Positions 4,569 to 60,400 of a DNA stretch of 64,000 bases are shown piece by piece. The stretch is from assembly GCA_963785235.1 (NCBI GenBank), contig CAWAUM010000003.1, forward strand, positions 288,001 to 352,000. The letters run 5' to 3'. The DNA is from an uncultured delta proteobacterium (GTDB taxonomy: Bacteria > Desulfobacterota > Desulfomonilia > UBA1062). The notes under the pieces are model-generated. The model ran no database searches and was not told the origin of the DNA. It saw only the letters and a program-made list of their open reading frames with translations. Each line of letters begins with the position of its first letter. The first letter of the stretch is position 1. The position numbers and the translations under genes were made by a program.

Positions 4569-4741
4569 TTAAGCATAAACTCATAGTGACCATGAAGTTG
4601 TTTTTAAATATTAGGTCCGTTCAAATCATCTATCTTCGCAGCCGTCGGATAATGTTAATTTTCCCGGCCCTTCAAGGCTGCGAAGATAGATGATTTGAAC
4701 GGACCAGGTTTTAAAGCCTCTTAAATGCAACCTTCGGATTT
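4569..4741 (+). repeat. Dispersed palindromic element copy A (30 bp perfect arms 4614-4643 / 4676-4705, 32 nt spacer)
   Basis: GGTCCGTTCAAATCATCTATCTTCGCAGCC and its exact reverse complement; flanks homologous to copies C and G. Confidence 0.9.
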
Positions 4742-4805
4742 CAGATCACCGATCCTTCGCTTTTCATTTCTTGCCCGCAGACCTCCACCCTGCTAACAGT
4801 GAATA

Positions 4806-5516
4806 ATGTCCGATTATCTCATCTGCTGGCCTCAACTCACAAAAGGCACCCTTATCAGGCGCTACAAACGCTTCATGGCTGATGTGGAGCTTGAAAACGG
4901 CCATGTCATAACCGTCCACTGCCCCAATTCGGGCCGTATGCTCGGCTGCTCAGAGCCCGGCAGGACCGTATTCCTCTCACAGTCTGATAATAAAAACCGG
5001 AAATTTCCCTATACCTGGGAGATCATCCACATGCCGGGCTCACTGGTAGTGGTCAATACCCTGCGTGCCAACCAGGCCGCAAAGGCAGCCATAGAACGCG
5101 GTCTTATACCCGAACTTGCAGGTTACTCTGCCATCAGATCCGAGGTTAGGATAGGCGAACACTCGCGTATCGACCTTCTCCTTGAAAGAGATCACGGAAG
5201 ATCGTCACTGGTGGAGGTGAAAAGCGCTACATACGCAATTGATGGCCGCGTCATGTTTCCGGATGCTGTGACAGCCCGTGGTCTTAAGCATCTCAAGGAA
5301 TTGCAGAGATCACTGACAAGAGGATACCGGTGTGCCATGTTCTTTCTGGTGCAAAGAATGGACGCACATTTCTTCACACCTGCAGACCATATTGATCCGG
5401 CATATGCCCAAGGTCTCCATATGGCCCGCAGCAAAGGTGTAGATGTTATCGTCTATGGGACAGAAATCACCCATGAAGGCATGGGCCTGGGCCCACGAAT
5501 ACCTTGCCGATTCTAG
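4806..5516 (+). CDS. sfsA: DNA/RNA nuclease SfsA (sugar fermentation stimulation protein)
   Basis: RRYKRFMADV, HCPNSGRM, SRIDLLL, VEVKS, FPDAVTARGLKHL. Confidence 0.95.
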   Translation: MSDYLICWPQLTKGTLIRRYKRFMADVELENGHVITVHCPNSGRMLGCSEPGRTVFLSQSDNKNRKFPYTWEIIHMPGSLVVVNTLRANQAAKAAIERGLIPELAGYSAIRSEVRIGEHSRIDLLLERDHGRSSLVEVKSATYAIDGRVMFPDAVTARGLKHLKELQRSLTRGYRCAMFFLVQRMDAHFFTPADHIDPAYAQGLHMARSKGVDVIVYGTEITHEGMGLGPRIPCRF

Positions 5517-5643
5517 CCAAGGAGTGCCTTGCCCATAATATTAATCCATCAGCTGTATTGAAATAGGACATTCTTGTCCCTACTCAGGTATCAAGGCTGA
5601 ACTTCATGCTCGCAACTGATGGCATTCACAAAGGAGAGATGAT

Positions 5644-6120
5644 ATGAAAAAGGATACGGAGCTGACCTTGGCAAGAAAAGAAAATGAAAAAGGATCGTCC
5701 CGTGAAGATATGACCGACTCATCCAGGAAGACACTCACCAAAGAACCATCTGCGAACGACAATATCTATACCGACACCATAAAGTCACTATTGGAGAAAA
5801 ACAGGAGCAGGGTTTCACAATACTACTGCGCCAACAGAAAATGTCCAACCACGTTCTGGGAAGCGGATCTTGGATTCCAGTGCCCTCGCTGCGGTGCTTT
5901 CGGCCTTATCAGCTCATTCAAGGCAGACACGGCATACGAACCCGATATGAATAAGCCCGTGGTTGGATATATTGACAGTATCGGCCGGCTGTTCTGCCCC
6001 ACGTGCACAGATCGCTTCGGAATGAGAGATGATGTAGGTCTGGTCATCTACAACGACAGCGAGCCTTACTGCAATGAGGACTGCGAGGCATGTAGAACCA
6101 GCCTTCACTCGACTTTGTAA
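5644..6120 (+). CDS. Hypothetical Cys-rich, putative zinc-binding protein
   Basis: 158 aa ORF with RBS AAGGAG; CANRKC, CPRC, CPTC, CNEDCEAC. Confidence 0.6.
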   Translation: MKKDTELTLARKENEKGSSREDMTDSSRKTLTKEPSANDNIYTDTIKSLLEKNRSRVSQYYCANRKCPTTFWEADLGFQCPRCGAFGLISSFKADTAYEPDMNKPVVGYIDSIGRLFCPTCTDRFGMRDDVGLVIYNDSEPYCNEDCEACRTSLHSTL

Positions 6121-6166
6121 GAGACACCTCCCCGGATGAGGTCTTTTACGGTATAGTAAAGACCTT

Positions 6167-6899: not shown

Positions 6900-6923
6900 C
6901 ATGTGCATGGAGGTCTTTATAAT
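6896..6923 (+). promoter_or_regulatory. sigma70 promoter of ihfB
   Basis: TTGACA-16 bp-TATAAT consensus 35 bp upstream of ATG. Confidence 0.8.
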
Positions 6924-6957
6924 CTATGAATAATTATATAAATGTAGGAGGAGATAC

Positions 6958-7239: not shown

Positions 7240-7281
7240 TAACCATCCAAAAGCTCAGCCTCTATTTTTTTGTATTTGAGA

Positions 7282-7321: not shown

Positions 7322-7335
7322 TACTCTACAAATTT

Positions 7336-8739: not shown

Positions 8740-8805
8740 CTCAACCCCCCCACTTCGCCCTGAAAAACGCATCTGATCTTGATTGCAAAGACTATTGCAC
8801 AGCTA

Positions 8806-8980
8806 TAAAAAAACCTTACCCGTTCAAATCATGCATCTCGGCTTCACCGAGATGCATGATTTGAACGGGCCAATTTTTGTTGCATCCCAAAAGTTTTTAG
8901 GTTGTGGAATGGTCTGAACCTAATGCAAGCTGCTCATAAGCTTTTTGTTACATTCCTTTCATACTTGGTTGTTCAAGTTC
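8806..8980 (-). repeat. Dispersed palindromic element copy B (23 bp perfect arms 8819-8841 / 8847-8869, 5 nt loop)
   Basis: CCCGTTCAAATCATGCATCTCGG-CTTCA-CCGAGATGCATGATTTGAACGGG; AAAAACCT left flank is the reverse complement of the family AGGTTTTT flank. Confidence 0.8.
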
Positions 8981-9044
8981 TAGGGGAATGATGGTTACCG
9001 CAGGAGTCTTTTGCAAGCAGATCAAGCCCACCTTCAAGGAAATA

Positions 9045-19903: not shown

Positions 19904-19934
19904 CGCTGCCCTCACAAATACGGCTCATCTCACG

Positions 19935-20160
19935 TAAACCCAGAGTATGCAATTGAATGAGACCATACGCACCCAATACACTCCAAGGGTACCTTGAGTA
20001 GAAAACTCGTGGTGAACGAAAATGTTTTTATAGGTCCGTTAAAATCAGTCATCTTGCAGCCCTTAAAAGACCGGAAAAATAGGCTCTCTCCTAAGGCTGC
20101 AAGATGACTGATTTTAACGGATCAGGTTTTTACACAGCCTAAATACAAAATCTGAGTTAA
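19935..20160 (+). repeat. Dispersed palindromic element copy C (27 bp perfect arms 20035-20061 / 20095-20121, 33 nt spacer)
   Basis: TCCGTTAAAATCAGTCATCTTGCAGCC and exact complement; termini AAACCCAGAGTATGCAATTGAA ... AAATACAAAATCTGAGTTAA. Confidence 0.9.
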
Positions 20161-20231
20161 ACATGGATACATTCAAACGCTGAATCCGGATTGAAACGCA
20201 GCCGTACAAGGGTGTCTTTATAATGAAATTC

Positions 20232-43160: not shown

Positions 43161-43188
43161 GTCCCGACCTTCTTTCTCGTGGTATGAA

Positions 43189-43539: not shown

Positions 43540-43568
43540 TATCCTTGCTCCTTTATTTACTATATTAC

Positions 43569-43597
43569 CTTTTAGTAAATTACTTTACTGATGTCAA
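43569..43597 (-). promoter_or_regulatory. arsR promoter with inverted-repeat operator
   Basis: TTGACA (43597-43592) -17- TAAAAG; AGTAAA-N4-TTTACT (43574-43589) in the spacer. Confidence 0.55.
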
Positions 43598-43704
43598 GGC
43601 CGTTTTCCCTGAAGGAAGACCTGATTCTTCGGTACTGTCTGTCCTTGATCCTTGCCACAATCCATGGGATAAGCCGGGAATGAACTGAAAGGGGGAGGAT
43701 ACAC

Positions 43705-44265: not shown

Positions 44266-44271
44266 GCCGGC

Positions 44272-45168: not shown

Positions 45169-45191
45169 TGGGCATCCCCGTTGGATCTCAC

Positions 45192-45377
45192 ATGAAACTC
45201 ACTCAAAATGCGAACGACAAGTGCCTTCAGTGCCGGGCCTGCATGGACTGTGACGAGTTGCAATGCCTGTTCTACGGGCACGGTGATCCGGACGATTGCT
45301 GCATGGAAAAGTGTAAATACTGCATGGACTTTCTCAAGAAACAGCGGCTCTACATGAACAATGTAGGGATAGCTTAA
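45192..45377 (+). CDS. Small Cys-rich hypothetical protein
   Basis: CLQCRACMDCDELQC...CCMEKCKYC; start uncertain (45165 or 45192). Confidence 0.45.
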   Translation: MKLTQNANDKCLQCRACMDCDELQCLFYGHGDPDDCCMEKCKYCMDFLKKQRLYMNNVGIA

Positions 45378-45520
45378 GTCGGAGTTTTGCAATTGAACGA
45401 ACCCATATCGGTTTATAAGCCGTTAGCCCATGACCACCTTTAAGTCTTTTTTTATTCTGAGAAAAAATTGAACCGTTCAAGATGGATGAGTTCCCGTGGA
45501 ACTCATCTATCTTGAACGGT
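45374..45520 (+). repeat. Dispersed palindromic element copy D (23 bp arms 45472-45494 / 45498-45520, one G-T pair, 3 nt loop)
   Basis: ACCGTTCAAGATGGATGAGTTCC-CGT-GGAACTCATCTATCTTGAACGGT; left terminus TTAAGTCGGAGTTTTGCAATTGAA. Confidence 0.8.
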
Positions 45521-45630
45521 CTTAAGTAAAAGAATCCTTATAGGTCGGCTACAGGTCGTGGATCTACTAAGGAGTATGATAAGGGAGCATCGAACATGAA
45601 AGCCCGACCATGCTCCCTAAGCACTTTCCA

Positions 45631-47193
45631 TCAGTCAGCCCCGGGCTGAATCTTCCCGCCTGAGGCCGTATTCTTCATGAAGAGCACAAGTGGGATGAGG
45701 ATGACCATCATCCACGTAAGCAGATAGAATACGTCTGCAAAAGAGAGCATGGCAGCCTGCCTGACCATATTCTCGTACATGATGCCGAGTCCGCCATGAT
45801 CGGCCGAGGAAGGATCTATCCCTTTCTGCTGCAGGAGTGTGGCGCCCTGCTGGGCACGCAGTGCGTACATGGAATCATACGGGGTCAGCTGATCAATCAG
45901 ACGGGACTGGTGAAACTGGGACCTGCGGCTTACCATGGTCGTGACAATGGCAATCCCGATGCTGCCTCCAATATTTCTGACGAGATTGTATAAGGCGGTG
46001 GCATTGCCCATGTCTTCCTTTTTTATGCTGGCAATGGTCAGGGTGGTGAGCGGGATGAAGAGCATGCCCATGCCCACGCCCATGAAGATCCTGGGCCACA
46101 GAACGGTTGCGAAGTCCACTCCCAGGGTGAACCCGGCCATGAGGAGTGTGGAATATGCGGTGAAGAGTATTCCGACTATGACAAAAACCTTCGGGTTGTA
46201 CCGGTGGAGAAACCTGCCCACAAGGGGCATGGTTATCAGGTTCGCCACGCCACCGGGTGCCAGCACCAGGCCCGCCAGGCTCGCAGTGTAGCCCATGAGC
46301 GTCTGGAGATAGATGGGCAGCAGTACAAGCGTTCCGAAGAGGTTTGCCATGAAGACAAACATGGCAATGTTGCCAAGGGTGTAGGAGTAGTTCCTGAACA
46401 CACTCAGATCCACAATGGGCCGCTCGGCATAGCGCTCCACTGCGACGAACAGGGCGAGGGAGAATACCGCTATAAGCCCCAGGGCAATCATGATGTTTGA
46501 ATTGAACCAATCGAATCTCTGGCCCCGGTCAAGGAGGAGCTGGAGGCAGCCTACCCCAAGGCCGAGCAGGATGAGGCCCCAGTAGTCGATCTTCATCCGC
46601 ATGCCCTTCATGTACGGGGGGTCCACAATGACGAAGATCGCCATGATGACCGAGATGATGCCGATGGGGATATTGATGAAGAACACCCAATGCCAGGTGA
46701 GGACATCGGTGATCCACCCGCCGAGTACCGGACCGATGATAGGGCCAAAGCTGACACCGATGCCGAAGATAGCCATGGCTATGCCATACTGCTGGGGCGG
46801 GAAAGACTCGAGCAGGATCGCCTGGGATAGCGGTGGCATTGCCCCTCCGGAGAGACCTTGCAGGATCCTGAATACTATGAGGCTCTCTATGCTCCATGAG
46901 GCCCCGCACAGAAAAGAGCTCACCGTAAATGCCACGATGGAAAAGATAAGGTAGCGTTTGCGGCCGATAAGCCTGCTGATCCACCCGGTCATGGGGATGA
47001 TGACCGCATTTGCCGCCAGATATGCAGTGATGGACCAGGTGGCCTCGTCGATGCCTGCAGAGAGGCTCCCCCTTATATGGTCAAGGGAGACATTCACCAC
47101 CGAGGTGTCCAGGACGACCATGAGCATGGGGAGCATCACGGTGGATGCAACGAGCCACTTGTTCGGTTGGACCGGCGAGGAAGGGGCCATCAC
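45631..47193 (-). CDS. emrB: DHA2 family MFS efflux permease, EmrB-like
   Basis: LDTSVVNVSL, WSITAYL, GPVLGGWITD..WHWVFFINIPIG, RNIGGSIG. Confidence 0.9.
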   Translation of the reverse strand: MMAPSSPVQPNKWLVASTVMLPMLMVVLDTSVVNVSLDHIRGSLSAGIDEATWSITAYLAANAVIIPMTGWISRLIGRKRYLIFSIVAFTVSSFLCGASWSIESLIVFRILQGLSGGAMPPLSQAILLESFPPQQYGIAMAIFGIGVSFGPIIGPVLGGWITDVLTWHWVFFINIPIGIISVIMAIFVIVDPPYMKGMRMKIDYWGLILLGLGVGCLQLLLDRGQRFDWFNSNIMIALGLIAVFSLALFVAVERYAERPIVDLSVFRNYSYTLGNIAMFVFMANLFGTLVLLPIYLQTLMGYTASLAGLVLAPGGVANLITMPLVGRFLHRYNPKVFVIVGILFTAYSTLLMAGFTLGVDFATVLWPRIFMGVGMGMLFIPLTTLTIASIKKEDMGNATALYNLVRNIGGSIGIAIVTTMVSRRSQFHQSRLIDQLTPYDSMYALRAQQGATLLQQKGIDPSSADHGGLGIMYENMVRQAAMLSFADVFYLLTWMMVILIPLVLFMKNTASGGKIQPGAD

Positions 47194-47210
47194 GCGAAAG
47201 CCAAGGGCGG

Positions 47211-48310
47211 CTACTTTCTCACCGCAATGGTGGGCTGAACCGACATACCCACACGCAGGATGTGCTCCGGGTCAGTGGCCTTTTCCAGTATGATCTTCAC
47301 GGGAATACGTTGCACCACCTTCACGTAATTGCCCGTGGCGTTCTCAGGGGGGAACAGGGAGAAGACGCTCCCGGTCCCGGCCATTATGCTGTCGACCGTT
47401 CCTGAGAAGGTCTTGCCGGGATACATATCTACCTTGATCTGAACCTTCTGGCCCGGCCTTCACATTCGTAAGTTGCGTCTCCTTATAATTTGCAACAATC
47501 CATACATCCTTCAAGGGAACAAGCGCCATGAGCGGCTGACCCGCCCTGCACCTGGTTGCCGACCTCTACATTCTTCTTGGTGATGTAACCATCCGAGGGT
47601 GCATATATCTTCGTATACCCCTGCATCAGACTCGCCAAGGCCAGCACTTGCTTCTTCTGTTCCACGATGTACCCTTGAGACAGATAGGCTGCCTTGGACT
47701 GCCGGATAACGAGCTTCTGGGTCTCCAGTGATGCTAAGGCCTGCTTGATTTGCTCGCGGGCCGCATCAACCTGGGCCCTTGCAACATCGTAAGCCGTTGT
47801 TGCCTTCTCGAGTGTCGCCTCGGCAAAGATCCCTTTGTCATAAAGCTTCCTCGCCCTTACCAGATCCTGATTTGCCTGCTTCAGATTGGCTTCCTGCAAG
47901 GCCAGTGTCGCCCGGGCTGTATCGATCCTTGATTGTATCTCGTCAAGCTGCTTGCCTGCTACATCTACCCGTGCGGAGAGCTCAGAGAACTTTGATTGCT
48001 CTGAATCCACTGTTGCCTTGGCATCACTGACCTTTACATCATAATCCCTGCTGTCGATCTCCAGGAGGGGTGCCCCTTTTTTTACCAACTGGTTGTCATG
48101 AACATACACATCCTTTACCGTACCTGCTACCTTCGGGGCTATGGAGTGGATACTGCCCGTCACATAGGCATCATCAGTGGAGATATAATATTTTGTGTGC
48201 CTGATATAGAAATAGACCGCGACAATGATTATGAGTGCAATGATTCCGAATACGAAGAAGACTTTAGACTTGTTCGATTTAGCAAGACTGCCCGGCCCAT
48301 TTTCTTCCAT
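47211..48310 (-). CDS. emrA: HlyD/EmrA membrane fusion protein (two indels near 47452 and 47545)
   Basis: STDDAYV, IYAPSDG, WIVANYKETQL, PPENATGNYVKVVQRIPV spread over three frames. Confidence 0.85.
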
Positions 48311-48552
48311 GCACTCCTCCTTCAATGATGCTTCTGATGCGAGAGCCTTCTTGGAATCTGTTTGATTATTGCTGTTCAAGGCTGACTGATTTCTTTTTCC
48401 ATAGCATGATCTCATGGCAGCCAGTGAGAATTGTGTACTATGCCCAGCTTATTCCATTTCAGACAAATGATTTAAAACTGCGAATAACCGACATGTCCTG
48501 TTATTGTCAAGGGGTATCATTGTCGCATGATAAAATATCTCAGGGCTTTACA

Positions 48553-48698
48553 CTCAGATTATAGGTCAGTTCAAATACCCATAAATACTCGCATGCACTT
48601 CTAGTGGAACGCTAATTATATCAGTCCTGAAGGCTGCGATATTTAGGTTTTGAACGGAAAAAGGTTTTTACGACATCTTCAACGCAAAATCCGGAATT
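48553..48698 (+). repeat. Dispersed palindromic element copy E (degenerate left arm)
   Basis: Right arm GGCTGCGATATTTAGGTTTTGAACGGA, AGGTTTTTAC flank and GCAAAATCCGGAATT terminus; left arm with indels. Confidence 0.75.
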
Positions 48699-48842
48699 GC
48701 ACGAAATCCCTGACCACCTGCCCCATATAGGTAAGAAACTTTCAGCTGCCCTATTCCATCAGGGCGTAATCTTGTTATAATAGTATCCGTGTACATTACA
48801 TGTACTGTATTGGCACTTTAAGCCATTAACCCATGAGGTTGT

Positions 48843-50136
48843 ATGGAATCTGATGCATACACTGATCATTCCAAGTACCCGATTCTCGAGCACATAGCCG
48901 TGCCCGAAGACATGCGCACCGCATGGCAGGATATCGTTGACCTGATCTCCGAGATCTTCCAGGTCCCTGCGGCGCTGATCATGCGGGTGCATGAGCGCGA
49001 CATCGAGGTGTATGTCCAAAACCGGGTACCAGCCACCCCTACAAGTCCGGACATAAGGAACTACTGGGCATGGGTCTCTACTGCGAAACCGTAATGGACA
49101 ACCGCGCCACGCTGCTCGTTCCTGATGCCACGAAAGACCCTGCATGGGATCATAACCCCGACATCGCTCGCGGCATGATCTCATACCTGGGCATGCCTAT
49201 CACCTGGCCGGCCGGTGAGATCTTCGGGACCATCTGCGTGCTGGACACAAAGGAGAACCGCTATACAGAGCACCTCACAAGGCTCCTGGAGAAGTTTTCC
49301 CGGCTCATCATGTCCGACCTCCACATACTCTGGTCTTCATTGGAGCTTGAAAATGCCAATCACGAGCTTCAAGCGCTGAACGAGGAGATGAACCAGTTCA
49401 TGGGGATAGCGGCCCACGACCTGAGAAGTGCACTGAACGTGCTGCTGGGATGCAGCAATTACCTCCTTCCCAAGGATTCGGAGAATCTTTCAAACAAAGA
49501 ACGCACATACCTGAACCTCATCAGAAAATCCTCCTCCACCATGCTCAGGCTCATGGACGAGCTCCTGGACATCGCCCGGATAGACACCATGCGCCTTCCC
49601 CTTACCCTTGAAGAAACTGACTTCTCCGTGCTTATTGGCGAAAATATTCAGTTCAACCAAGCCCTTGCCGAGGCAAAGGGCATCCAGATAAACCTCCTGA
49701 CACCTCCGACGCCTGTAACGGGTAAAACTGGACCCGGGCAAGATCGAACAGGTGCTCAACAACCTCCTGTCCAACGCCATCAAGTACTCACCCTTCGGAT
49801 ACCACCATCATGGTTTCTGTTGACCAGACCCCTGATGAAATAATCGTTTCGATCCGCGACCAGGGACCCGGCATACCTAGTGAAGAACAGCAAGACCTGT
49901 TCAATCCATTCCGGACCACGAGTATCAGACCTGCCTCAGGCGAACCCAGTACCGGCCTGGGGCTGTACATAGCCAGAAGGATCGTAGAGGAACACGGCGG
50001 CCGGATCTGGGTTGAAAGCGATACCGGCAAAGGCTCAGCCTTCTCTTTCACGCTGAAACATTTACTCGCTAAGGCATTGAAGAAAAAGGCGGCAAGGCCC
50101 TATGCCCGCATGAAAATCAAAGAAACAACCAAGTAG
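48843..50136 (+). CDS. GAF-domain sensor histidine kinase (several indels)
   Basis: [28 protein letters not shown]; H-box AAHDLR; [10 protein letters not shown]; DQGPGI, GLGLYIA. Confidence 0.8.
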
Positions 50137-50174
50137 CCTTTTCCCTTAATTGAAGTCAGAATAACCAATAAACC

Positions 50175-52086
50175 TTAAAGCTCTTCCGGGGTAACGAGTG
50201 ACGTGACTTTCTCGGTGAGATACTTGGGATTGCCTTCTTTGGGCAGCCAGATGCTGACCTGTGTTAAAGGCTTCTTCATCCTGGCCATCCAGCCACCGAG
50301 CTGCTGGGGTTTGAGTGAGATACAGAAGAGCTCGTTCCATGAGTTCATGTAGAGCACATCCACCTCAGCTATGGAATGGAGGATGTCAGGGCGTTCCATG
50401 TTCGCTATGATAACTACATGTTTGGCATATTTGTCTTCCATGAGAGATGCCCGGTCAAGGCCGATGGAACTGGCATCCGGAATCAGGGAGTTAAGCTTCC
50501 ACAGCAGTGATTGAATGTCATAGAGTACTACCTTGGATACATTGGGGATCATATGGAAGGCAGTGGATGCGTCAAATCGCTTGTTGTATACAAGCCATGC
50601 CAGGATATTGGCCACCCTTTCGGATTCCATGACAGGCGAACCCTTGCCTGTCTCGGGGGAACTCTCATATATGGTCCATGCCTTGTTATTATAGGTAAAG
50701 AATAGGTCCCGATATGCCGGTTCCTTCCTTTTCACCCGCTTTTCAGACTCGATTTTGCCCTCTTTCGATACATAAAAGGCCTCTACCCTCCTCCTGAGAA
50801 CCTCCACCTCGATATCTTCGTTAAGAACCGTATTGCTGATGTATGACTTGGCCCTGCGAATGAGCTGTACCGTGGTCAGTTTCAGGAAACCATGGATATC
50901 GTCGCCGAACTTGCGGTATTTTTCCACCCCCCATTCGGAGAATTCATTCAACTCCTTGATGGTTTTCAGTGACCAGCCCCATGACTTCACGATGTCCACC
51001 ATAATGGATGCCTTGTCATCACGCTCCAGCTTGTAAAGATCAGCACTGCGGATATTGGGGTTCACCTTCAGGTAAAAACACTTTCTGAGCAGATCTATCG
51101 TTCTATCATCACCCTTGGCATGGTAATAGTCCTCTACACGGCGCAGCACCTGATAATATGGATCGATGATATCATGGCCTTTGGCATAGAATACATTGTG
51201 CTTGAGGATATTGCATAAAAGCATGCCTTTTGATGAGGCTTCCAGATAGCTGGCAACAAGCGCCATCTTGAGGACCGATTTCAGGGGATCATCCAGGGCC
51301 TTGTGCATCTGCCACAATGCTGCACCCAACAGCTCCTGTTCAGGTATGAATTCAACATCACCAAGATCAATGCACTCCTCTTCATTCGTGACCGTGCGCG
51401 ATCGGCTTAGCGAGCCCATCTGAGCGGATGATCCGTCTCTCTGCTCCGGTTGCACAATCCACCACAGCGGCACCCGTCCTTCAATCAAGGTCAGGGTGCG
51501 GTAAAACTCTTCTTTCAGTATGGACTTCAAGGCAGACCCGGAACCCTCCTGCGAAACAGAGCCAAAATTGTTGGCCCTGATGTCCTTAAGGTCCATGAGG
51601 AAGAAGTGTATGTCCAGAACGTACTTACCCGTTATCCAACGCCTGAGTATCTTCAGCTTGCTACTAAGGATCTTTAGCCTTTCGGGCTCGATACGCTGGG
51701 CATCAACCACTACCCAGATATCATAATCCGATTCTCTTGTCTGGGCAAGACTGCCCACGCTTCCGATGGTAAAGAGCCCTTCAATCTCCAGCTGCCGCGG
51801 CATATAATTCTGCATCCTGCCGAGGTTAACCCTGGAGGCAAGATACGACCCTATGTCCCTGCAGCGTCTGTGAAGGCCACTCCATATATTTTATGCCGCA
51901 TGGACAGTTCTCTTGCTCCACGTAGCCTGGAAGGCTCGGATGATTAATATGAATAAGCAGGGGTAGAAGCTCAAGAATGACCCGCGCGCCCGCAGGATCA
52001 CACTTGCGCATGATGTCCTTCTTGTAGCGGTTGTAGCTTGTAAAGGCCCTCAGGCCGATTGAAACACTTATATCAAGATGCCTCAT
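50175..52086 (-). CDS. cyaA: Class I adenylate cyclase (split by indel near 51830)
   Basis: LLPLLIHINHPSLPGYV, IGSVGSLAQT..SDYDIWV, LKEEFYRT, ALWQMHKAL..PLKSVLKM. Confidence 0.85.
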
Positions 52087-52102
52087 CTATTTGTTTATCG
52101 CA

Positions 52103-52882
52103 CTATACTTCCCGAGACTTTAGGCGCCAACCTATAAGCGTAAGGCCTGCCGCAACCATGATCATGCACAGAACCTGCCCCATGCTTAAAGGGCCGATAA
52201 CCAAACCGAGCTGGGGATCAGGCTCTCTGAAGAACTCCAGAAAAAACCGCATGATCCCGTAACAGGCAAGGAAAATACCGAAGAGTATCCCTTGGGTGTC
52301 TACCTTTCTGCTCACAAGATAGAGTATTATAAAAAGGAGCGCTCCCTCGGATAGTGCTTCATAAATCTGGGAAGGGTGTCTCGGCAATGGCCCTCCATTG
52401 GGGAATACCATGCCCCAGGGTACATTGGTAACCCTTCCATAGAGCTCGGCGTTGATAAAGTTACCGATACGACCGAAAAAAAGGCCCGGGGCTGCACCCA
52501 GCGCCCCGAAATCCGCCAGCATGAGAAACGCTTTTCTCCGGGATATGGAAAAGATCGCCCCGGTAATAATCAGCCCTATCAGGCCGCCATGGAATGACAT
52601 GCCGCCTTCCCAGACGGCGAAGATCTTGAAAGGATTGGAAAGGTAATATGCCGGGTTATAGAAAAGGCAGTACCCGATCCTTGCACCTAAAACAAGTCCG
52701 AGTATGCAGTAGGTGATGAGATCTTCAACATCCGTCTTTGTCATGGGGAGCTTCCTGCGACGGCAGACATCCATGATGACCACGTATGCGATGATGAAGC
52801 CGAATATATACATGAGGCCATACCATCTGAGCTGCAAAGGTCCGAGGTGGATGAGCACAGGATCAATCTGGGGATATCTCAT
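52103..52882 (-). CDS. lgt: Prolipoprotein diacylglyceryl transferase
   Basis: RWYGLMY, WEGGMSFHGG, GRIGNFINAELYGR, RHPSQIYE. Confidence 0.97.
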   Translation of the reverse strand: MRYPQIDPVLIHLGPLQLRWYGLMYIFGFIIAYVVIMDVCRRRKLPMTKTDVEDLITYCILGLVLGARIGYCLFYNPAYYLSNPFKIFAVWEGGMSFHGGLIGLIITGAIFSISRRKAFLMLADFGALGAAPGLFFGRIGNFINAELYGRVTNVPWGMVFPNGGPLPRHPSQIYEALSEGALLFIILYLVSRKVDTQGILFGIFLACYGIMRFFLEFFREPDPQLGLVIGPLSMGQVLCMIMVAAGLTLIGWRLKSREV

Positions 52883-52943
52883 GGACTTGAGTGTTCTCAT
52901 ATCTTCCATACGCAAGTCAAGGATCTCGGTTTATTCAGGTCTT

Positions 52944-53124
52944 TTAATCCGGATTTTGCCTTCAAGATTCTGCCTTTAAGCTAAGTGAAAAGACTTAATC
53001 CGTTAAAAACCTCAATCTTGCAGCCACTGCGGGATGCTGAAATTTCTCGGTCCTTCATGGCTGCAAGATTGAGGTTTTTAACGGACCAGGTTTTTACACT
53101 TTTTTAAATACAAAATCCCGATTT
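52944..53124. repeat. Dispersed palindromic element copy F (28 bp perfect arms 52999-53026 / 53058-53085, 31 nt spacer; short-type flank on both sides)
   Basis: TCCGTTAAAAACCTCAATCTTGCAGCCA and exact complement; termini AATCCGGATTTTGC ... ACAAAATCCCGATT. Confidence 0.9.
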
Positions 53125-53240
53125 GAAGATCCCGGCAGGGTGGATTCATGAGCTATATGTCCAAGGACTAAACGATGTGAGACTTCCAGGATCTATCTTC
53201 CATAATTATTTATCTTTTTTAGATAATTCCTCATGCATCC

Positions 53241-53269
53241 TTGACTAAATCATGCTGAATTGCTATTGT
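53241..53269 (+). promoter_or_regulatory. Putative sigma70 promoter of carD operon
   Basis: TTGACT-17-TATTGT with TG extension. Confidence 0.5.
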
Positions 53270-53296
53270 TGTCAATACAGGAAAGGGATATTACTC

Positions 53297-53800
53297 ATGT
53301 TCAAAGTCGGAGATATAGTCGTATATCCAGCACACGGGGTTGCTGAAGTTGATTCTGTGGAGAGCAGGGATATATCGGGCAGCAGCATATCTTTCATCAT
53401 ACTGAAGGTCCTCGATACCCAGATGACTGTCATGGTCCCTGTTTCAAATGTTAATAATGTCGGAATCAGAGAACTCATAAAAACCAAGGGAATCGACCAG
53501 GTTATTGATATCCTGAAGCAAAGATCCGTACATGTGGATAACCAGACATGGAACCGCCGGTATCGCGAATATATGGAGAAGATCAAGAGCGGTTCTGCCT
53601 TTGAGATCGCCGAGGTACTCCGGGACCTCAATATCCTCAAGCGTGGCAAAGAGCTCTCGTTCGGCGAAAGAAAGATGTACGATACAGCCAAGAATCTTTT
53701 AGTCAACGAGATCTCCATATCCAAAAAAATTGACAAAAAAGATGCTGAGATAATGATTCTTTCCGCCATGGGAAAGATCGATGCGGCATCATCTTCCTAA
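53297..53800 (+). CDS. carD: CarD family transcription regulator
   Basis: FKVGDIVVYPAHGV, TWNRRYREYMEKIKSG, LSFGERKM. Confidence 0.95.
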   Translation: MFKVGDIVVYPAHGVAEVDSVESRDISGSSISFIILKVLDTQMTVMVPVSNVNNVGIRELIKTKGIDQVIDILKQRSVHVDNQTWNRRYREYMEKIKSGSAFEIAEVLRDLNILKRGKELSFGERKMYDTAKNLLVNEISISKKIDKKDAEIMILSAMGKIDAASSS

Positions 53801-53818
53801 ATAGAATAGGATATTCAT

Positions 53819-54805
53819 ATGAAATGGTTGTTACGCATCCTTATCGCCCTGGTTGTCTTCTACGGTTCCTTCCAATATGCAGTTGAACAAATGGGAGGGG
53901 GGATCTGGTGCATCATTCTGCCTCTCATTGCAGAGACATGCCTATTTGCCATTTTCATAACCGAATCAAAAGGGTTCAGGCTCCACCCCATGGCCTATGC
54001 AGGCGGCCTTTTGGGGACTATCCTCGGCCTCATCATCGGCAGCCTTTTTGGATATGTACTTATCGGGCTCAATACGAGCGGAATCTATCTCTTCATCCTC
54101 ATCAACACCATGTTCGCCTATCTGGGCTACAATGTTGGTCTTGCATGGGGCTCTGAGATCGGCTCTATGCCCATATTCCATCAAAAGCTCAAGGGCGAGG
54201 GCACCAAGATGAAGATCCTCGATACAAGCGTTATCATCGACGGCAGGATCTCGGACATCTCTGATGCCGGCTTCATAGAAGGCACCCTGATCGCACCTCA
54301 GTTCATCCTGAATGAGCTCCAGCATATCGCCGATTCATCCGATCCGTTGAAGCGGGCGCGTGGAAGACGCGGGCTGGACATCCTCAACAAGCTCCAGAAG
54401 AGCCAGAACGCCAGGGTAGAAGTCATGGAGATCGACTTCCCCAAGATCAAGGAGGTTGATACCAAGCTCATCGCCTTGGCAAAGGAACTTGGCGCCGATA
54501 TCCTGACCAATGACTTCAACCTGAACAAGATAGCCCAGATCCAGGGCGTGAATGTACTGAACATCAATCAGCTTGCCAATGCGGTAAAACCCATTGTGCT
54601 GCCAGGCGAGAGCATGGCGGTATTGGTAACAAGGCAGGGCAAGGAGCGCGGCCAGGGCGTGGCGTACCTTGACGATGGGACCATGGTGGTTGTGGAGCAA
54701 GGGGAAGGCTTCATGAATCAGAGCATCGAGGTGGTTGTTACCTCCATCCTCCAAACCCCTGCAGGCAGGATGATCTTCGCAGCACCGAAAACCAATGGCT
54801 TTTAG
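53819..54805 (+). CDS. PIN/TRAM domain membrane protein (YacL-like)
   Basis: LDTSVIIDGRI, RGRRGLDIL, TNDFNLNK, YLDDGTMVVV. Confidence 0.92.
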   Translation: MKWLLRILIALVVFYGSFQYAVEQMGGGIWCIILPLIAETCLFAIFITESKGFRLHPMAYAGGLLGTILGLIIGSLFGYVLIGLNTSGIYLFILINTMFAYLGYNVGLAWGSEIGSMPIFHQKLKGEGTKMKILDTSVIIDGRISDISDAGFIEGTLIAPQFILNELQHIADSSDPLKRARGRRGLDILNKLQKSQNARVEVMEIDFPKIKEVDTKLIALAKELGADILTNDFNLNKIAQIQGVNVLNINQLANAVKPIVLPGESMAVLVTRQGKERGQGVAYLDDGTMVVVEQGEGFMNQSIEVVVTSILQTPAGRMIFAAPKTNGF

Positions 54806-55470
54806 CGCAGTTATCGTTGCAGGTGGCAGCGGAGCCCGGTTCGGCCTGAAAAAACAGTTTCTTGATCTTCTTGGAATTCCTGTCCTGAAAAGGACGGTAT
54901 CCTGCTTTGATGCCCATGCAGCTATTGACAAGCTCATTGTTGTTGTTCCCGAAGAAGATATGCCGCAAGCCCGGCAGATCCTCGCAGATACGCAGAAAGG
55001 ATCTCGTCATAACAAAGGGCGGCAGGACCAGACAGGAATCGGTTATGAACGGATTACGATGCGCCCATGAAAGCCCGAACGTACTCATCCATGACGGGGT
55101 AAGGCCCTTTATATCATCTGACCTTATTGACCGGGTGATTGCCGGCCTGGAAGGCGTCGACGGGTGCATCCCCGCCCTTGAGGTAACCGATACCCTCAAA
55201 GAGGTGCATGACGGCATGGTAAGAAAAACCATACCACGCAGCAACCTCTACCAGATACAGACACCCCAGGCCTTTGTGACGAAAACTCTCATGTCGGCCC
55301 ATGAAAGATCGCCCGGTGGCGGCCTGTTCACCGATGACAGCGCATTGTTAGAGGCTTCAGGAAAGACCGTAAGGATTGTTGAGGGTGATCCTTACAATGT
55401 GAAGATAACCTTCAGGGATGATATCGTTTTGGCGGAGGCTATTTTAAGATGCCGTACAGGGTTGGAATAG
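54795..55470 (+). CDS. ispD: 2-C-methyl-D-erythritol 4-phosphate cytidylyltransferase (indel near 54997)
   Basis: AGGSGARFG..KQF, GGRTRQESV, IHDGVRP, QTPQAF, TDD, NVKIT. Confidence 0.92.
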
Positions 55471-55928
55471 GGTTTGACATTCATAGACTGGTCGAGGACA
55501 GGCCACTGATCCTCGGGGGGGTGACCATCCCTTACCCTAAAGGTCTGCTGGGCCATTCCGATGGAGACGTGATTATCCATGCTCTGTGCGATGCCATCTT
55601 AGGCGCCGCCAGCCAGGCGGACATCGGCGAGTTGTACCCGGACACCTCAAAGGAAACCGAAGGCATGAACTCACTGAACATGCTTCACGAAATCCTGGAT
55701 ACGATCATCAGCGATTATGAACTTGGCAACATCGACATCAATTGCATCTGCGAAAAGCCGAAGCTCTCCGGTTATCGATCAGAGATGATAAATACCATCG
55801 CATCAGTAACCGGGCTCGACCCATCTGCCGTTTCAATAAAATTCCGCACCCACGAGGGCCTTGGCGAGATCGGTGCAGGCCATGCCATTGCCGCTCAGGC
55901 TGTGGTCCTGCTGAAGAAGCGAGATTAA
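55449..55928 (+). CDS. ispF: MECDP synthase
   Basis: GFDIHRL, GHSDGDV..HALCDA. Confidence 0.95.
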   Translation: MPYRVGIGFDIHRLVEDRPLILGGVTIPYPKGLLGHSDGDVIIHALCDAILGAASQADIGELYPDTSKETEGMNSLNMLHEILDTIISDYELGNIDINCICEKPKLSGYRSEMINTIASVTGLDPSAVSIKFRTHEGLGEIGAGHAIAAQAVVLLKKRD

Positions 55929-55944
55929 CACCTAAGGAGAATCC

Positions 55945-57378
55945 ATGGAACTGAACATATTCAACACACCCTTCAAGAAGAAAAGGCCCTTTGAACCGTT
56001 GAAAGGCAACAAGGTCGGCATGTATGTATGCGGGGTCACCGTCTATGACATGTGCCATATCGGCCATGCCCGCTCTTTGATCATCTTCGACGTCATCTCC
56101 CGTTATCTCAGGAGAAAGGGCTATGAACTGACCTATGTGAGGAACTTCACGGACATCGATGACAAGATAATCGCCAGGGCCAATACGCTTGGAACATCTT
56201 ACCGCGAGATAGCGGACCGATACATCGACGAGTTCAAGACCGACATGGATACACTCAAGGTGAGGCCCGCGGATATCGAGCCCAAGGCCACGGACCACAT
56301 CAAGGATATCATCGAGCTGGTGCGCATCCTTGAAGACAAGGGGCTCGCATATAAGGCCGATGACGGCAGCGTGTATTTCAGCGTCTCAAATTTCAAGAAC
56401 TACGGAAGCCTCAGCGGGAGAAGGACCGAGGAGATGATTGCCGGGGCCCGGGTGGATATAGAGGAATTGAAAAAGGACCCGCTTGATTTTGCGTTATGGA
56501 AGCGGAGCAAGGAAGGCGAACCCTGGTGGGAAAGTCCCTGGTCCAAAGGCAGACCCGGCTGGCATATCGAGTGCTCGGCCATGAGCACCCGCTTTTTAGG
56601 CCCTACCCTTGACATCCACGGCGGCGGCAGAGACCTGATCTTCCCGCATCATGAGAATGAGATCGCCCAGTCCGAGGGGGCCTACGGGGTCCCCTTTGTG
56701 CGGCACTGGATACATAACGGCTTCGTTACGGTGGATGGGGAAAAGATGAGCAAGTCGCTGGGCAACTTCATTACCATCCGGGAGCTCACCAAGGATGTCC
56801 ATCCCGAGGTCTTGAGGCTGCTCCTCTTGTCCCACCATTACCGGAGCCCCATCGATTTTTCCCGGGATGCAGTGAATACCTCCAGACACGCACTGATACG
56901 CTTCTATGAGATGCTGGACAGGGTTACTCATAATACGGCAACAGGGAAGGATTCACGCCTTGAAGGACTTCTTGGCGCCTTCACAACAGGGCTCGATGAA
57001 GCCATGGCTGATGACTTCAATACGGCAAAGGCAATTGCCGGACTTCATGACCTTACCACGGAGATCAACCGTGCCCTGGACCAGGACTCCACGGTATCCC
57101 AGACTGACAGAGACGGGCTTGAAAAGATCGTACTTGAGATTAAAGATATTTTTGGGATCCTCACAGAAGAGCCTACAGCCTTCCTGGAGTCCATGAAGCG
57201 CGGCAGTGTTCACATCACCGGCCTTACTGAACACGAGATTGCCGGATTTATTGACCAGAGGAACCTGGCCAGGAAGGCACGCGACTTTAAAAAATCCGAT
57301 GAGATCAGAGATTTGCTCAAGGGCAAGGGCATTCAGCTCAAGGACACCCCGGAAGGCACGGTGTGGGAAAAGATCTGA
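55945..57378 (+). CDS. cysS: Cysteine--tRNA ligase
   Basis: CGVTVYD..HIGH, GRPGWHIEC, KMSKS. Confidence 0.97.
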   Translation: MELNIFNTPFKKKRPFEPLKGNKVGMYVCGVTVYDMCHIGHARSLIIFDVISRYLRRKGYELTYVRNFTDIDDKIIARANTLGTSYREIADRYIDEFKTDMDTLKVRPADIEPKATDHIKDIIELVRILEDKGLAYKADDGSVYFSVSNFKNYGSLSGRRTEEMIAGARVDIEELKKDPLDFALWKRSKEGEPWWESPWSKGRPGWHIECSAMSTRFLGPTLDIHGGGRDLIFPHHENEIAQSEGAYGVPFVRHWIHNGFVTVDGEKMSKSLGNFITIRELTKDVHPEVLRLLLLSHHYRSPIDFSRDAVNTSRHALIRFYEMLDRVTHNTATGKDSRLEGLLGAFTTGLDEAMADDFNTAKAIAGLHDLTTEINRALDQDSTVSQTDRDGLEKIVLEIKDIFGILTEEPTAFLESMKRGSVHITGLTEHEIAGFIDQRNLARKARDFKKSDEIRDLLKGKGIQLKDTPEGTVWEKI

Positions 57379-57402
57379 ACTTAAAACGGGCCCTCATGGA
57401 AT

Positions 57403-59397
57403 ATGGGTTATAAACTCGTCTCGCCCTTCAGCCCACAGGGTGACCAGCCTCAGGCCATCGATGCCCTCTGCGAGGGCATCGAGCACGGCATACGCGATCA
57501 GGTACTCCTGGGGGTAACCGGTTCGGGCAAGACCTTTACCATGGCCTGCGTTATCGAACGCACAAGAAGGCCTGCCCTTGTAATGGCGCCTAACAAAATC
57601 CTGGCGGCACAGCTTTACGGGGAATTCCGGGAGCTCTTCCCGGAAAATTCCGTAGAATACTTCATCAGCTACTATGATTATTACCAGCCCGAGGCCTATG
57701 TACCTTCAAGAGACCTGTACATAGAGAAGGACTCCTCCATCAACGAAGACATAGACAAGCTCAGGCACAGGGCTACCAGGGCCCTGTTCGAACAGCAGGA
57801 GTCCATCATCGTGGCCTCGGTTTCCTGCATCTACGGCCTGGGTTCGCCCGAGGCCTATCAGGGCATGCTCCTTTACCTGGAAGAAGGCCGCCCCATGGGC
57901 AGGGACGAGATCCTGAAGAAGCTCGTGGAGATTCAGTATGTGCGCAATGACCTTGATTTCCACCGCGGCACCTTCCGGGTTAGGGGTGATGTCATCGAGG
58001 TCTTCCCGGTTCATGAAGATGATACCGCACTGCGCATAGAGCTTTTCGGCGACGATATCGAAGCCCTGTGGCAGATCGACACGATCAGGAACAAGAAGAT
58101 CAAGCGGATAGGACACATTCCCATCTACCCCGCCTCCCATTATGTGACCCCGCGGTCAGTCCTGCTCAATGCCATTGATGCCATCAAGGAAGAGCTGAAA
58201 GAACGAGTGGCGTTCTATCAGGCGCACAACCGGCTCATAGAGGCGCAGCGGATCGAGGAGAGGACAAGGTACGACCTGGAAATGCTCATGGAGACGGGGA
58301 GCTGCAAGGGGATTGAGAACTATTCCAGGCACCTCACGGGCCGCAGCCAGGGTGATCCCCCCCCTACCCTCATGGACTATTTACCGAAAAACGCCATAGT
58401 GTTCCTGGATGAGTCGCATGTGGGAGTGCCCCAGCTCATCGGCATGTATCGCGGTGATCACTCCAGAAAGTCAACCCTGGTGGAATACGGATTCAGGTTG
58501 CCATCCGCCCTTGATAACAGACCTTTACGGTTTGATGAGTTCAACCGGATTGTCAACAGCATCGTCTATGTCTCCGCCACACCGGGTGACTACGAGATCA
58601 AACAGGCCAAGGGAAAGGTGGTGGAGCAGGTCGTGAGGCCCACAGGTCTGCTGGACCCTATCATAGATATCCGGCCCGCCACCGGCCAGGTGGATGATCT
58701 CTACCGCGAGATTGTCAAGACTGTTGACAAAGGGGGCCGTGTTCTCGTCACCACACTGACCAAGAGGATGTCAGAGGAGCTCGCTGAATATTTCCAGGGC
58801 CTTGATATCAAGGTGAAGTACATGCACTCGGATATCGACACCATTGAAAGGATCGAGATTATCAAGGGACTGAGGGAAGGCGTCTTTGATGTGCTGATCG
58901 GCATCAACCTCCTGAGGGAAGGGCTCGATCTGCCGGAGGTGACGCTTGTTGCCATCCTGGATGCCGACAAGGAAGGTTTTCTCAGGTCCACACGTTCACT
59001 TATCCAGACGGCAGGACGGGCGGCAAGGAACATCAAAGGCAAGGTCATCATGTATGCCGATAAAAAAACCGCATCCATAGAAAAGGCATACTCCGAAACC
59101 ACCAGGCGGAGGAAAAAACAGGAGCAGTATAATAAGGCGAATAACATCACACCCAAGAGCATCCAGAAAAACATCCGTGATATTCTTGCTTCCATTTATG
59201 AACGTGATTACCCTGACATCTCAGCTCAGATCAAGACATCCATGGGCACCATCGAGCTCAGGAAGGTAAAGGAGACGATTCATGACCTGGAAAAGAAGAT
59301 GATGAGGGCTGCCCAGGACCTGAGGTTTGAAGAGGCAGCCGAAATAAGGGATGAAGTGAAAAGGCTGAAAAGGATTCACCTGGCAGTGGAGGGTTGA
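57403..59397 (+). CDS. uvrB: Excinuclease ABC subunit B
   Basis: [29 protein letters not shown]-terminal UVR domain. Confidence 0.98.
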
Positions 59398-59400
59398 AAA

Positions 59401-60108
59401 GTGTTATCCGATCTTGAAGCCATGGGCTATCATATTCGCAAGGAAGACAGCCTCACCCTCATCTACAAACCTTTCCTGTCGGGGCTATGGGACATTGCCA
59501 AGACTAAAGGCCCAATGGGTGAAACCACGACAATGACGGGGAGATCCCCCCTGAGGTTCATCGAACCCGATATGGTGGTGCGCACCCTCATGCACGGGGG
59601 TATGTTCAGACATATCACCGGGAAGAGATTTTTACACCCGAACCGGACCATACGGGAACTTAAGGTAAGTGCATATCTTGCCGCACACGGCATACGCACC
59701 CCTGAGATCCTCGCTGTGAGGATTATAAAGGATGGGCTGTTTTATTCCATGGATGTGGTCTCCAGGTTCATCCCTGAATCCAAGGATCTGCTTATTCATT
59801 TTGAGGACAGCCATACAGACAACCTTGAGCTTATCAGAAAATCCGGATTGCTTATCAGAAAGATCCACGACCTTGGCGTGTATCATACAGACCTCCATAT
59901 TAAAAACCTCCTCCTGGATAATGCAGGAAATCTATGGGCGCTCGATCTCGACAAGGCATATCAATTCGAATCACTGCCTGAATTCATGAAACAGATGAAT
60001 CTGAAACGTTTTATGAGATCTATAATAAAATGGCAGACAAAAGGCCGCATTCATCTACCTGATGAATGGGCATCGAGCTTCCTGAGCGGGTATCATACTA
60101 TTACATAG
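59401..60108 (+). CDS. Kdo kinase / lipopolysaccharide kinase family
   Basis: HGGMFR, HDLGVYHTDLHIKNLL, LDLDK. Confidence 0.75.
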   Translation: MLSDLEAMGYHIRKEDSLTLIYKPFLSGLWDIAKTKGPMGETTTMTGRSPLRFIEPDMVVRTLMHGGMFRHITGKRFLHPNRTIRELKVSAYLAAHGIRTPEILAVRIIKDGLFYSMDVVSRFIPESKDLLIHFEDSHTDNLELIRKSGLLIRKIHDLGVYHTDLHIKNLLLDNAGNLWALDLDKAYQFESLPEFMKQMNLKRFMRSIIKWQTKGRIHLPDEWASSFLSGYHTIT

Positions 60109-60168
60109 TCAACATTGTTATACTATGCCCCAGGGCAAGATTACACACCCGGCCTGAGTAAAGTTTCA

Positions 60169-60400
60169 TCAAACCAGATTCTGTAATTGAATGTACCCTA
60201 GATACTCTATACACATCAAGTGACCTTAAGCATGAAAACTTATCGTGATCATGGACATGTTTTTTTAAAAACAGGTCCGTTCAAAACCTTAATCTTGCAG
60301 CCTGGAAGAACCGGGGAAATTAGCATCCCGCAAAGGCTGCAAGATTAAGGTTTTGAACGGATTAGGTTTTTACCCATCTTGTATGCAAGATCCGGGATAA
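60169..60400 (+). repeat. Dispersed palindromic element copy G (28 bp perfect arms 60276-60303 / 60334-60361, 30 nt spacer)
   Basis: TCCGTTCAAAACCTTAATCTTGCAGCCT and exact complement; termini AAACCAGATTCTGTAATTGAA ... TGCAAGATCCGGGATAA. Confidence 0.9.

Follow-up and report, generated by a model that had tools for sequence, protein, structure and literature searches.

Spacer inversion between perfect hairpin arms in a MITE-like repeat family of an uncultured delta proteobacterium

A stretch of 64,000 nucleotides from an uncultured delta proteobacterium (assembly GCA_963785235.1, contig CAWAUM010000003.1; henceforth the window) holds five copies of a repeat of ~220 bp, here called A, C, E, F and G, at whose centre lies a hairpin with long, closely complementary arms. 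The question that this locus raises is why the spacer between the arms reads one way in some copies and the opposite way in others, and whether such reversal is the work of a regulated switch, the trace of a mobile intermediate or a by-product of the palindrome itself. An earlier interpretation of the letters alone (the sequence-only reading) had proposed that the spacer is inverted relative to its flanks, and had suggested either a micro-invertible switch or the footprint of a hairpin or single-stranded DNA transposition intermediate. We found both orientations of the spacer relative to asymmetric flanks, reversal of the spacer at orthologous loci of a sister genome, concerted changes in the two arms and exchange of hairpin modules between copies. 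We consider it probable (roughly 0.7) that the flipping is a passive by-product of strand exchange or template switching between perfect arms, combined with the copying of modules between copies, and not a regulated switch.

Copies of the repeat in the window

Coordinates are window positions unless they carry a contig label; the window corresponds to C3:288001-352000 of a genome of 3.91 Mb in 13 contigs. The repeat consists of terminal inverted repeats, a longer flank with a one-sided insert (X, ~110 nt), a shorter flank (Y, ~45 nt) and the central hairpin, which has arms of 27-28 bp and a spacer of ~30 nt (in the window, arms of 27-30 nt with perfect or near-perfect complementarity). In alignments, the outer ends of X and Y are inverted copies of each other, and the X-specific insert (~75 nt) occupies one half only; the few copies without it, such as F, are palindromic throughout. 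The copies in the window are as follows:

Copy A, 4565..4753, + strand: only the 3' part of X (4565-4616); Y 4704-4753; hairpin arms 4614-4643 and 4676-4705 (30 nt, 100% complementary), spacer 4644-4675.
Copy C, 19931..20165, + strand: X 19931-20035; Y 20121-20165; hairpin arms 20035-20061 and 20095-20121 (27 nt, 100% complementary), spacer 20062-20094.
Copy E, truncated, 48557..48702, + strand: right arm and Y (48660-48702) kept; X remnant identified by eye.
Copy F, 52940..53136, + strand: hairpin arms 53000-53026 and 53058-53084, spacer 53027-53057; right Y 53086-53136.
Copy G, 60166..60404, + strand: X 60166-60276; Y 60362-60404; hairpin arms 60277-60303 and 60334-60360, spacer 60304-60333.

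Copy E is a deletion derivative of the element: in it, the spacer follows directly on the left terminal repeat and the initial portion of X, the left arm and the remainder of X being deleted. It matches the hairpin profile at positions 20-84 only, and its spacer resembles those of A and F. Copy F has a Y-type flank on both sides (the left one, which carries a 16-nt insert, was identified by eye, and nhmmer passes the right Y only); because it lacks the X insert, the orientation of its spacer relative to the flanks is undefined. No open reading frame (ORF) of at least 90 aa overlaps copies A, C or G, and the outer ~30 bp of the left flank of F overlap the end of an ORF at 52103-52915. A search of the window against Rfam at the gathering score returned no match except one tRNA (62165-62237).

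The spacer occurs in both orientations relative to asymmetric flanks

The four spacers quoted in the sequence-only reading each have a single exact match, at 4644, 20062, 53027 and 60304 (shuffles expect 0). Its claim that the spacer of G is the reverse complement of an F-like spacer was borne out by an identity of 0.77 after reverse complementation versus 0.48 in direct comparison (the best of 300 shuffles reached 0.58). The likening of A to F (0.68 direct versus 0.48 reverse-complemented) and of E to F (0.64 direct) agreed with the alignments, and A and G were 0.67 identical when one of them was reverse-complemented. The likening of C to G held in a profile built from 40 copies (62 bits in the minus versus 40 in the plus orientation) but was weak as a pair, in which direct identity was 0.58 and the shuffle maximum 0.61; the same profile gave plus and minus scores of 64 and 36 bits for A, 74 and 50 for F, and 53 and 82 for G. 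As had also been said, the long flank lies on the left and the short flank on the right in A, C and G, with X and Y both on the + strand. It follows that the spacer, and not the element as a whole, is inverted relative to asymmetric flanks: copy A has the minority orientation relative to the X-to-Y direction (termed 'same', as in the profile), and copies C and G have the majority orientation (termed 'opp').

Both states are found throughout the genome. A simple whole-genome scan detected 77 hairpins, with arms that start with CCGTT and that finish with GCAGCC in most of the long copies; 63 of them were 'long' (spacer of ~30 nt) and 14 'short' (loops of 3-5 nt, 11 in one copy). A profile search brought the number of long hairpins to 86 loci spread over 12 contigs, of which 83 measure 75 nt or more; the spacer is conserved among the copies, scoring 60-88 bits in its matching orientation. 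Flank X anchored 57 of the 83 hairpins, and the tabulation of spacer against flank orientation, which the sequence-only reading had put forward as a check, gave 41 'opp', 14 'same' and 2 unclear cases (binomial p = 0.0004 against 1:1, for copies that are not independent of one another). A first, cruder count had given 29 versus 11, with 23 of 63 hairpins unclassified. The sister genome, G011, has 47 X-anchored hairpins with a ratio of 30:17.

The spacer is reversed in place at orthologous loci

G011 is ~94-95% identical to the present genome in the genes around the elements. We located 63 G011 hairpins and mapped their distal flanks onto this genome, obtaining 38 pairs with a hairpin at the matching place, of which 22 had the same spacer orientation, 15 were flipped and 1 was unclear. 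A strict set leaves out 15 of these pairs (one second match to the same locus, one at a contig end, one with an unclear call and 12 with a near-flank identity below 0.70). Among the 23 pairs that it comprises, 15 spacers have the same orientation, eight are flipped and none is unclear; in the flipped pairs the flanks keep their orientation. The comparison of orthologous loci, another check that had been put forward, thus also supports a core that turns relative to its flanks. Two of the window copies pair in the same orientation, namely F with L060 (in the strict set) and G with L011 (left out of it, being the pair at a contig end); copy C pairs with L056, where the flanks are not colinear, and was left out of the strict set.

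Twelve strict pairs have modules (arms plus spacer) at least 88% identical in their best orientation, seven in the same orientation and five flipped. One clean case is L031 versus C4:41172, in which the flanks are colinear, the spacer is reverse-complemented with 3 substitutions, the two left arms do not differ and a single right-arm position is unpaired in each copy. At L066 versus C11:232132 the flanks are likewise colinear and the spacer is reverse-complemented with 2 substitutions, with few differences in the arms. In both cases the orthologue is the best match of all 83 modules (0.94 versus 0.91 for the next best at L031, and 0.88 versus 0.81 at L066), and, judged from the alignments, these two loci appear to be genuine in-place inversions. 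Three other flipped pairs (L038, L021 and L044) are equally clean but have another genomic copy as similar as the orthologue; they, too, are likely in-place inversions. Across the five clean pairs the spacer alone is reverse-complemented and the arms are conserved, with a few one-arm differences in three of the five.

Among the 14 X-anchored strict pairs, six differ in orientation, three in each direction relative to X, which is close to full randomisation at the observed orientation ratio. Five flips among 12 conserved-module loci at ~5% divergence would correspond to a flip rate of ~3-15 times the per-site substitution rate. Such a rate would be fast on an evolutionary scale yet orders of magnitude below that of phase variation, so that no dedicated recombinase would be needed.

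We considered whether these differences could be artefacts of assembly, given that de Bruijn words no longer than the arm permit both paths through a hairpin and leave the assembler to choose arbitrarily. Public k-mer contigs do show this weakness: in a comparison of contigs from 24 runs (best share of words 0.37), four runs (X1, X2, X3 and X5) were compared over 43000-62500 and their contigs often break inside hairpins, with pieces of run X1 ending at 53084 and starting at 53059. The sister genome, moreover, comes in 530 contigs. Set against this, the present genome was assembled into 13 contigs for 3.9 Mb despite its 86 copies, as might be expected from reads or words far exceeding the 28-bp arm in length, and both orientations occur within this genome alone. 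Furthermore, the flipped orthologous spacers bear ordinary substitutions of their own, and three neighbouring hairpins on contig C9 combine one module and one genomic orientation with differing flank directions, a biological pattern and not a random one. An assembly origin of the flips therefore seems very improbable.

One further feature of a flipped locus deserves separate mention. The L021 hairpin (G011:C350) carries three clustered C-to-T differences at the inner end of its left arm only, next to the loop, in an otherwise perfect stem; these could represent damage to exposed single-stranded DNA that is still uncorrected.

Arms change in concert and modules move between copies

The hairpin arms are almost perfectly paired (1613 of 1638 arm positions, or 98.5%, are Watson-Crick pairs, with 7 G-T and 18 other mismatches), and 44 distinct left-arm sequences occur among 63 copies. 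Selection on an RNA stem would be expected to leave an excess of wobble (G-T) pairs, and there is none. Comparison of orthologues in the 18 strict pairs free of arm indels gives 33 positions altered on both arms in concert versus 12 altered on one arm; when the five pairs with indels are added (23 in all), the counts become 37 and 86, and frame shifts in those five inflate the one-arm figure. Together, the concerted changes and the high degree of pairing suggest that symmetry is restored by copying one arm from the other. As single-stranded DNA, the hairpin is predicted to fold with -38 to -40 kcal/mol (z-scores of -9.6 to -11.4).

Whole hairpin modules are also exchanged between copies of the repeat. 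For example, the hairpins at C9:67842 and C9:70089, 2.2 kb apart, have modules that are 98.8% identical and flanks that are 67% identical; the two modules are opposite in orientation relative to X and the same on the chromosome. In 10 of the 23 strict pairs, more than four other modules of this genome resemble the G011 module better than its orthologue does (rank below fifth among all modules), with X and Y still 80-95% identical. Given that the arms are palindromic, a donor module can pair either way round, and module exchange would thus be a second way of changing orientation.

The two C9 hairpins belong to a cluster of 12 hairpins within 45 kb (C9:26784-71854). Three of these, at C9:65001, 67842 and 70089, share a private arm variant, a nearly identical spacer and one chromosomal orientation, and have flanks that point in different directions, which suggests that modules were copied locally between neighbours.

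These data also bear on the alternative that no inversion has taken place and that the two orientations are two old sub-families, founded when X or a nested hairpin landed once in each arm or orientation of a symmetric ancestor (an inverted Y, the hairpin and Y) and merely copied ever since. Symmetric copies without X do exist (F and, by eye, C1:658969 and C7:80234), and a tree of the flanks has too little resolution to speak against two origins, its well-supported branches forcing only one orientation change. However, two founding events would have to be reconciled with eight of 23 strict orthologous loci differing at a distance of ~5%, in at least two of which both flanks and module are conserved. 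Orientation is not clustered on the flank tree either (13 changes versus 12.5 in shuffles), and it is independent of the relatedness of the modules: of the 134 pairs of modules with an identity of 85% or more, 52 are opposite in orientation, where 50.9 are expected under independence. We thus regard a history of two sub-families as highly unlikely.

A probable passive by-product of perfect arms

How, then, could a spacer be turned around at so many loci? In the reading that we prefer, the perfect arms of 27-28 bp would act as substrates for DNA strand exchange, by a polymerase switching template between the arms at the replication fork or by intramolecular recombination of the arms. A short exchange would copy one arm from the other, so that the arms stay perfectly complementary, while an exchange running across the loop would leave the spacer reverse-complemented in place. 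In addition, modules of arms plus spacer would be copied between genomic copies, arriving either way round since the arms are palindromic. Flipping would recur on an evolutionary time scale. Of the three mechanisms listed in the sequence-only reading (template switching at palindromes, rolling-hairpin replication and site-specific invertases), the first fits best, on a par with arm-to-arm recombination, as concerted two-arm changes occur at the same loci; the other two were not supported. It is the enzymology (template switching or recombination) and the passive nature of the process that we infer here.

Several points weigh against this explanation. The evidence base consists of assembled contigs, in which neither the process nor a within-population mix of orientations is directly observed. 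The orientation ratio is unequal in both genomes (41:14 and 30:17), whereas symmetric flipping would tend to 1:1, and it stays skewed even though the states of individual loci are nearly randomised between the genomes. The tree of X plus Y resembles a star, with good support for 2 of its 52 inner branches, and recurrence is not demonstrable on it. G011 is fragmented, and whatever lies between perfect inverted repeats may be placed the wrong way round by an assembler whose words do not exceed the arm in length. Finally, sequence does not discriminate between template switching and RecA-type recombination.

With respect to the skew, replacement of the module and part of the flank from a biased family pool could maintain it without selection; selection for one orientation could also be its cause. 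A hazard of deletion in the minority orientation, in which X and the spacer contain direct repeats (as at the junction in copy E), was considered as a cause, but the genome has only 3 truncated hairpin loci, too few to bear on it. A related possibility is that the loop has a function that depends on its orientation, for instance as a binding site for a protein or in tuning termination or read-through, with ~80 micro-invertible sites whose state is selected or set directionally. We consider this very unlikely.

A further rival is a programmed micro-inverton, in which a recombinase or another dedicated activity flips the loops at a rate that matters physiologically and orientation tunes a promoter, terminator or binding site at ~80 loci. 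It would account for the perfect arms, for the conserved spacer (60-88 bits) and perhaps for states that are near-randomised between the sisters at a ratio near 70:30 in both, which could reflect a preferred state. Nevertheless, spacer orientation was associated neither with the direction in which adjacent genes run (crude longest-open-frame calls; Fisher p 0.33 and 1.0) nor with GC skew around the locus (Fisher p = 0.15 for spacer and 0.14 for element orientation). By the same crude frame calls, the copies lie mainly between convergent genes (22 of 54) and seldom between divergent ones (6 of 54). A promoter inside the spacer received no support: candidate hexamers picked out by eye were spaced at most 14 nt apart, and a scan of the copy G hairpin with a simple consensus, the one copy scanned, detected no sigma-70-like site. 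The number of flips required would be compatible with a rare mutational process. In addition, ~80 dispersed sites without an adjoining recombinase gene (no search aimed at recombinase genes was made) would be unlike known switches. The estimated flip rate, too, lies far below that of phase variation; the micro-invertible switch proposed in the sequence-only reading is not supported, and we deem it very unlikely.

A MITE-like element with conventional ends

Apart from its hairpin, the element resembles a miniature inverted-repeat transposable element (MITE). Its terminal inverted repeats begin with CCGG, and an 18-nt end motif has 52 matches at up to 3 mismatches versus 1 for the reversed control; nearest plus/minus pairs of ends are 105-223 bp apart, 13 of 15 at 205-223 bp. 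Presence and absence differ between the sister genomes, with 25 of the 63 G011 hairpins having no hairpin at the matching place here. Ten such places were aligned: several are empty (e.g., L014, L020, L054 and L065), and L013 and L024 keep remnants of the element. As to a target-site duplication, the junctions at the empty sites L014, L020 and L054 are compatible with a TTAA or TTA target, although they are not clean and TTAA is itself palindromic. Two element-free places in this genome, C11:80426-80692 and C2:244065-244455 (versus L020 and L068), resemble scars of excision or deletion more than untouched targets, one having a doubled TTA at the junction and the other a remnant of the right end joined at the palindromic CCGG.

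We looked for a mobiliser in several ways. Pairs of ends 400-6000 bp apart, which might bracket an autonomous insertion sequence (IS), enclose only separate elements. A model of the IS1380 transposase gave 0 matches in this genome, in G011 and in G008 (a third genome carrying part of the element; see below), and the loci inspected for ten of its matches in genomes of other genera of the family (two of the ten over the cut-off) have no matching ends, only chance-level hits with 5 mismatches. A search for a RAYT partner returned Y1_Tnp matches at C11:76115 and C1:221771, neither of which has a hit to the hairpin, X or Y profile in its vicinity (within 1.5 kb). The Y1 (HUH) gene at C1:221771-222109 (L115) is bracketed by inverted repeats of its own, 22-24 nt long and unrelated to the element, and may belong to a separate REP/RAYT-type system. 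As no autonomous partner was found and the Y1 genes are not flanked by the repeat, we class it among MITE-like repeats, with no known mobiliser, in preference to REPINs. It shares with MITEs its small size, non-coding sequence, terminal inverted repeats and many copies that differ in presence between genomes; a cognate IS was not turned up by these searches. In sum, the element is an undescribed MITE-like family that displays a known class of palindrome-driven change at unusual density.

The same results address the second proposal of the sequence-only reading, namely that the flip is the footprint of a hairpin or single-stranded transposition or replication intermediate (of the REPIN/RAYT, IS200/IS605 or rolling-hairpin kind) whose loop is resolved either way at each move. 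Such a route would be favoured by a hairpin that is very stable as single-stranded DNA and by the two Y1 (HUH) transposase domains encoded in the genome, and REPINs are, in the available text of the paper describing them, inverted doublets with a variable spacer (PMC3337134). Yet the hairpin and its flanks are absent from the surroundings of both Y1 genes (0 nhmmer matches at E<=1), and one of these genes has different inverted repeats of its own. Moreover, the terminal inverted repeats of the element are of a conventional kind and its target may be TTAA-like, and the flips are seen at orthologous loci that have not moved. These findings speak against the proposal, and we judge such an intermediate extremely unlikely.

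A possible identity as an integron attC site, suggested by the structured inverted repeat and by the cluster on C9, was set aside by reasoning, with no integrase search run: the stems are perfect and have no extrahelical bases, the flanks are conserved over 45-110 nt, and the element has terminal repeats and is dispersed over 12 contigs.

The family has a narrow distribution. With copy G as query, it was found in three of the 41 genomes searched: the present genome, G011 (many copies) and G008 (hairpin part only). All three belong to one genus, of which 15 genomes were searched, and none of the 26 genomes outside the genus carried it. In an exact-pattern scan of ~186,000 species genomes, two-arm matches were confined to G011 records and two further metagenome-assembled genomes (L074 and L091), each with X, hairpin and Y. 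The same scan gave eight single-arm matches in unrelated organisms, where ~4 are expected by chance. At positions 141-515 of L091 a full element is followed by a second, inverted X-type flank and preceded by an extra Y-type end, and from this arrangement elements seem to nest or abut.

Relation to known systems

Small inversions between hairpin arms have precedents in organelles. Kelchner and Wendel reportedly described hairpin-associated small inversions in chloroplast non-coding DNA in 1996. Chloroplast stem-loops with arms of 11-24 bp flip loops of 5-50 bp across land plants, according to the available part of a published account (PMC12928735, citing Kim and Lee 2005). The likeness, so far as that part describes them, lies in a short loop between arms (~30 nt between 27-28 bp here), in recurrent flip-flop among close relatives and in the lack of a dedicated recombinase. 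The difference is that here the arms are longer and actively kept perfect, and the hairpin sits at the heart of a mobile repeat present in many copies, with ~80 loci flipping in parallel and with module exchange.

The process itself has been characterised elsewhere. Template switching between the arms of inverted repeats homogenises the arms and inverts the spacer (PMC8604942), and the correction of imperfect repeats has been argued for proteobacterial intergenic DNA (PMC5941160), as far as the accessible text of both papers goes. Both outcomes that this text leads one to expect are present here, the first as 98.5% pairing with concerted changes and the second as spacer reversal. By contrast, the cases treated in that text are single-copy short repeats, with arms mostly below 20 bp, in yeast genes and Escherichia coli intergenic DNA. 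The accessible portions of PMC8604942 and PMC5941160 contained no case of a bacterial repeat family whose spacer is inverted between orthologous loci, and in that of the latter the word 'inversion' occurs 0 times.

Among bacterial repeats, REPINs are similar in being intergenic, multi-copy inverted doublets that fold into a hairpin, with a less constrained spacer, flanks rich in A and T runs and excision-type deletion derivatives (PMC3337134, available text). Unlike them, the present element has no RAYT gene flanked by the repeat; its terminal inverted repeats are long and its insert is asymmetric. The two 'orientations' described for REPINs refer, in the same portion of that paper, to a new doublet formed from two neighbouring ones (PMC3337134).

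The comparison with MITEs and invertons rests on more general traits of these elements. Bacterial MITEs such as Correia and ERIC are ~100-250 bp long, intergenic and able to fold back, with terminal inverted repeats and size variants due to indels. The present element shares this length, the terminal repeats, the intergenic position, the fold-back structure and the size variants, and differs in that no cognate insertion sequence with the same ends was found for it. A central perfect hairpin that is swapped and flipped was not described for bacterial MITEs in the literature searched, supplementary files aside. Known invertons span at least 100-500 bp, contain a promoter or part of a coding region, depend on a recombinase and switch visibly in reads. 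The element has in common with them a segment that is bounded by inverted repeats and occurs in both orientations; the hallmarks of invertons were not shown for it.

The ~80 parallel hairpin copies amount to a natural experiment in which arm correction, loop inversion and exchange can be measured against substitution. Small inversions are well documented in plastid DNA and in the mutation spectra of yeast and human, and they are hardly described for bacterial repeat families in the literature searched. Practical warnings ensue as well. Programs that search reads for invertons may take a loop between perfect arms for an invertible switch. Assemblers working with short words may mis-orient such loops, and the loops also introduce false multi-base 'substitutions' into intergenic alignments. 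If the unequal ratio of orientations does reflect selection, the hairpin would represent a new kind of very small invertible element.

Short hairpins related to the element

Two further hairpins in the window share the outer arm motif of the long ones and belong to the short class (14 genomic copies). Neither has an X or Y flank:

Short hairpin B, 8807..8881, no strand assigned: 5-nt loop.
Short hairpin D, 45472..45520, no strand assigned: 3-nt loop.

B and D represent a separate, terminator-like family, outside the flipping element. Hairpin B, the one whose flanks were read, has an A run before the stem and a T run after it, as in a two-way terminator. When 8740-9010 was compared with L023 (G011:C19), B was present here and a full long element in the sister, with no trace of B there (best local score 14); the intergenic regions between the genes are not homologous. 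The 5-nt loop of the short family also occurs in both orientations between copies.

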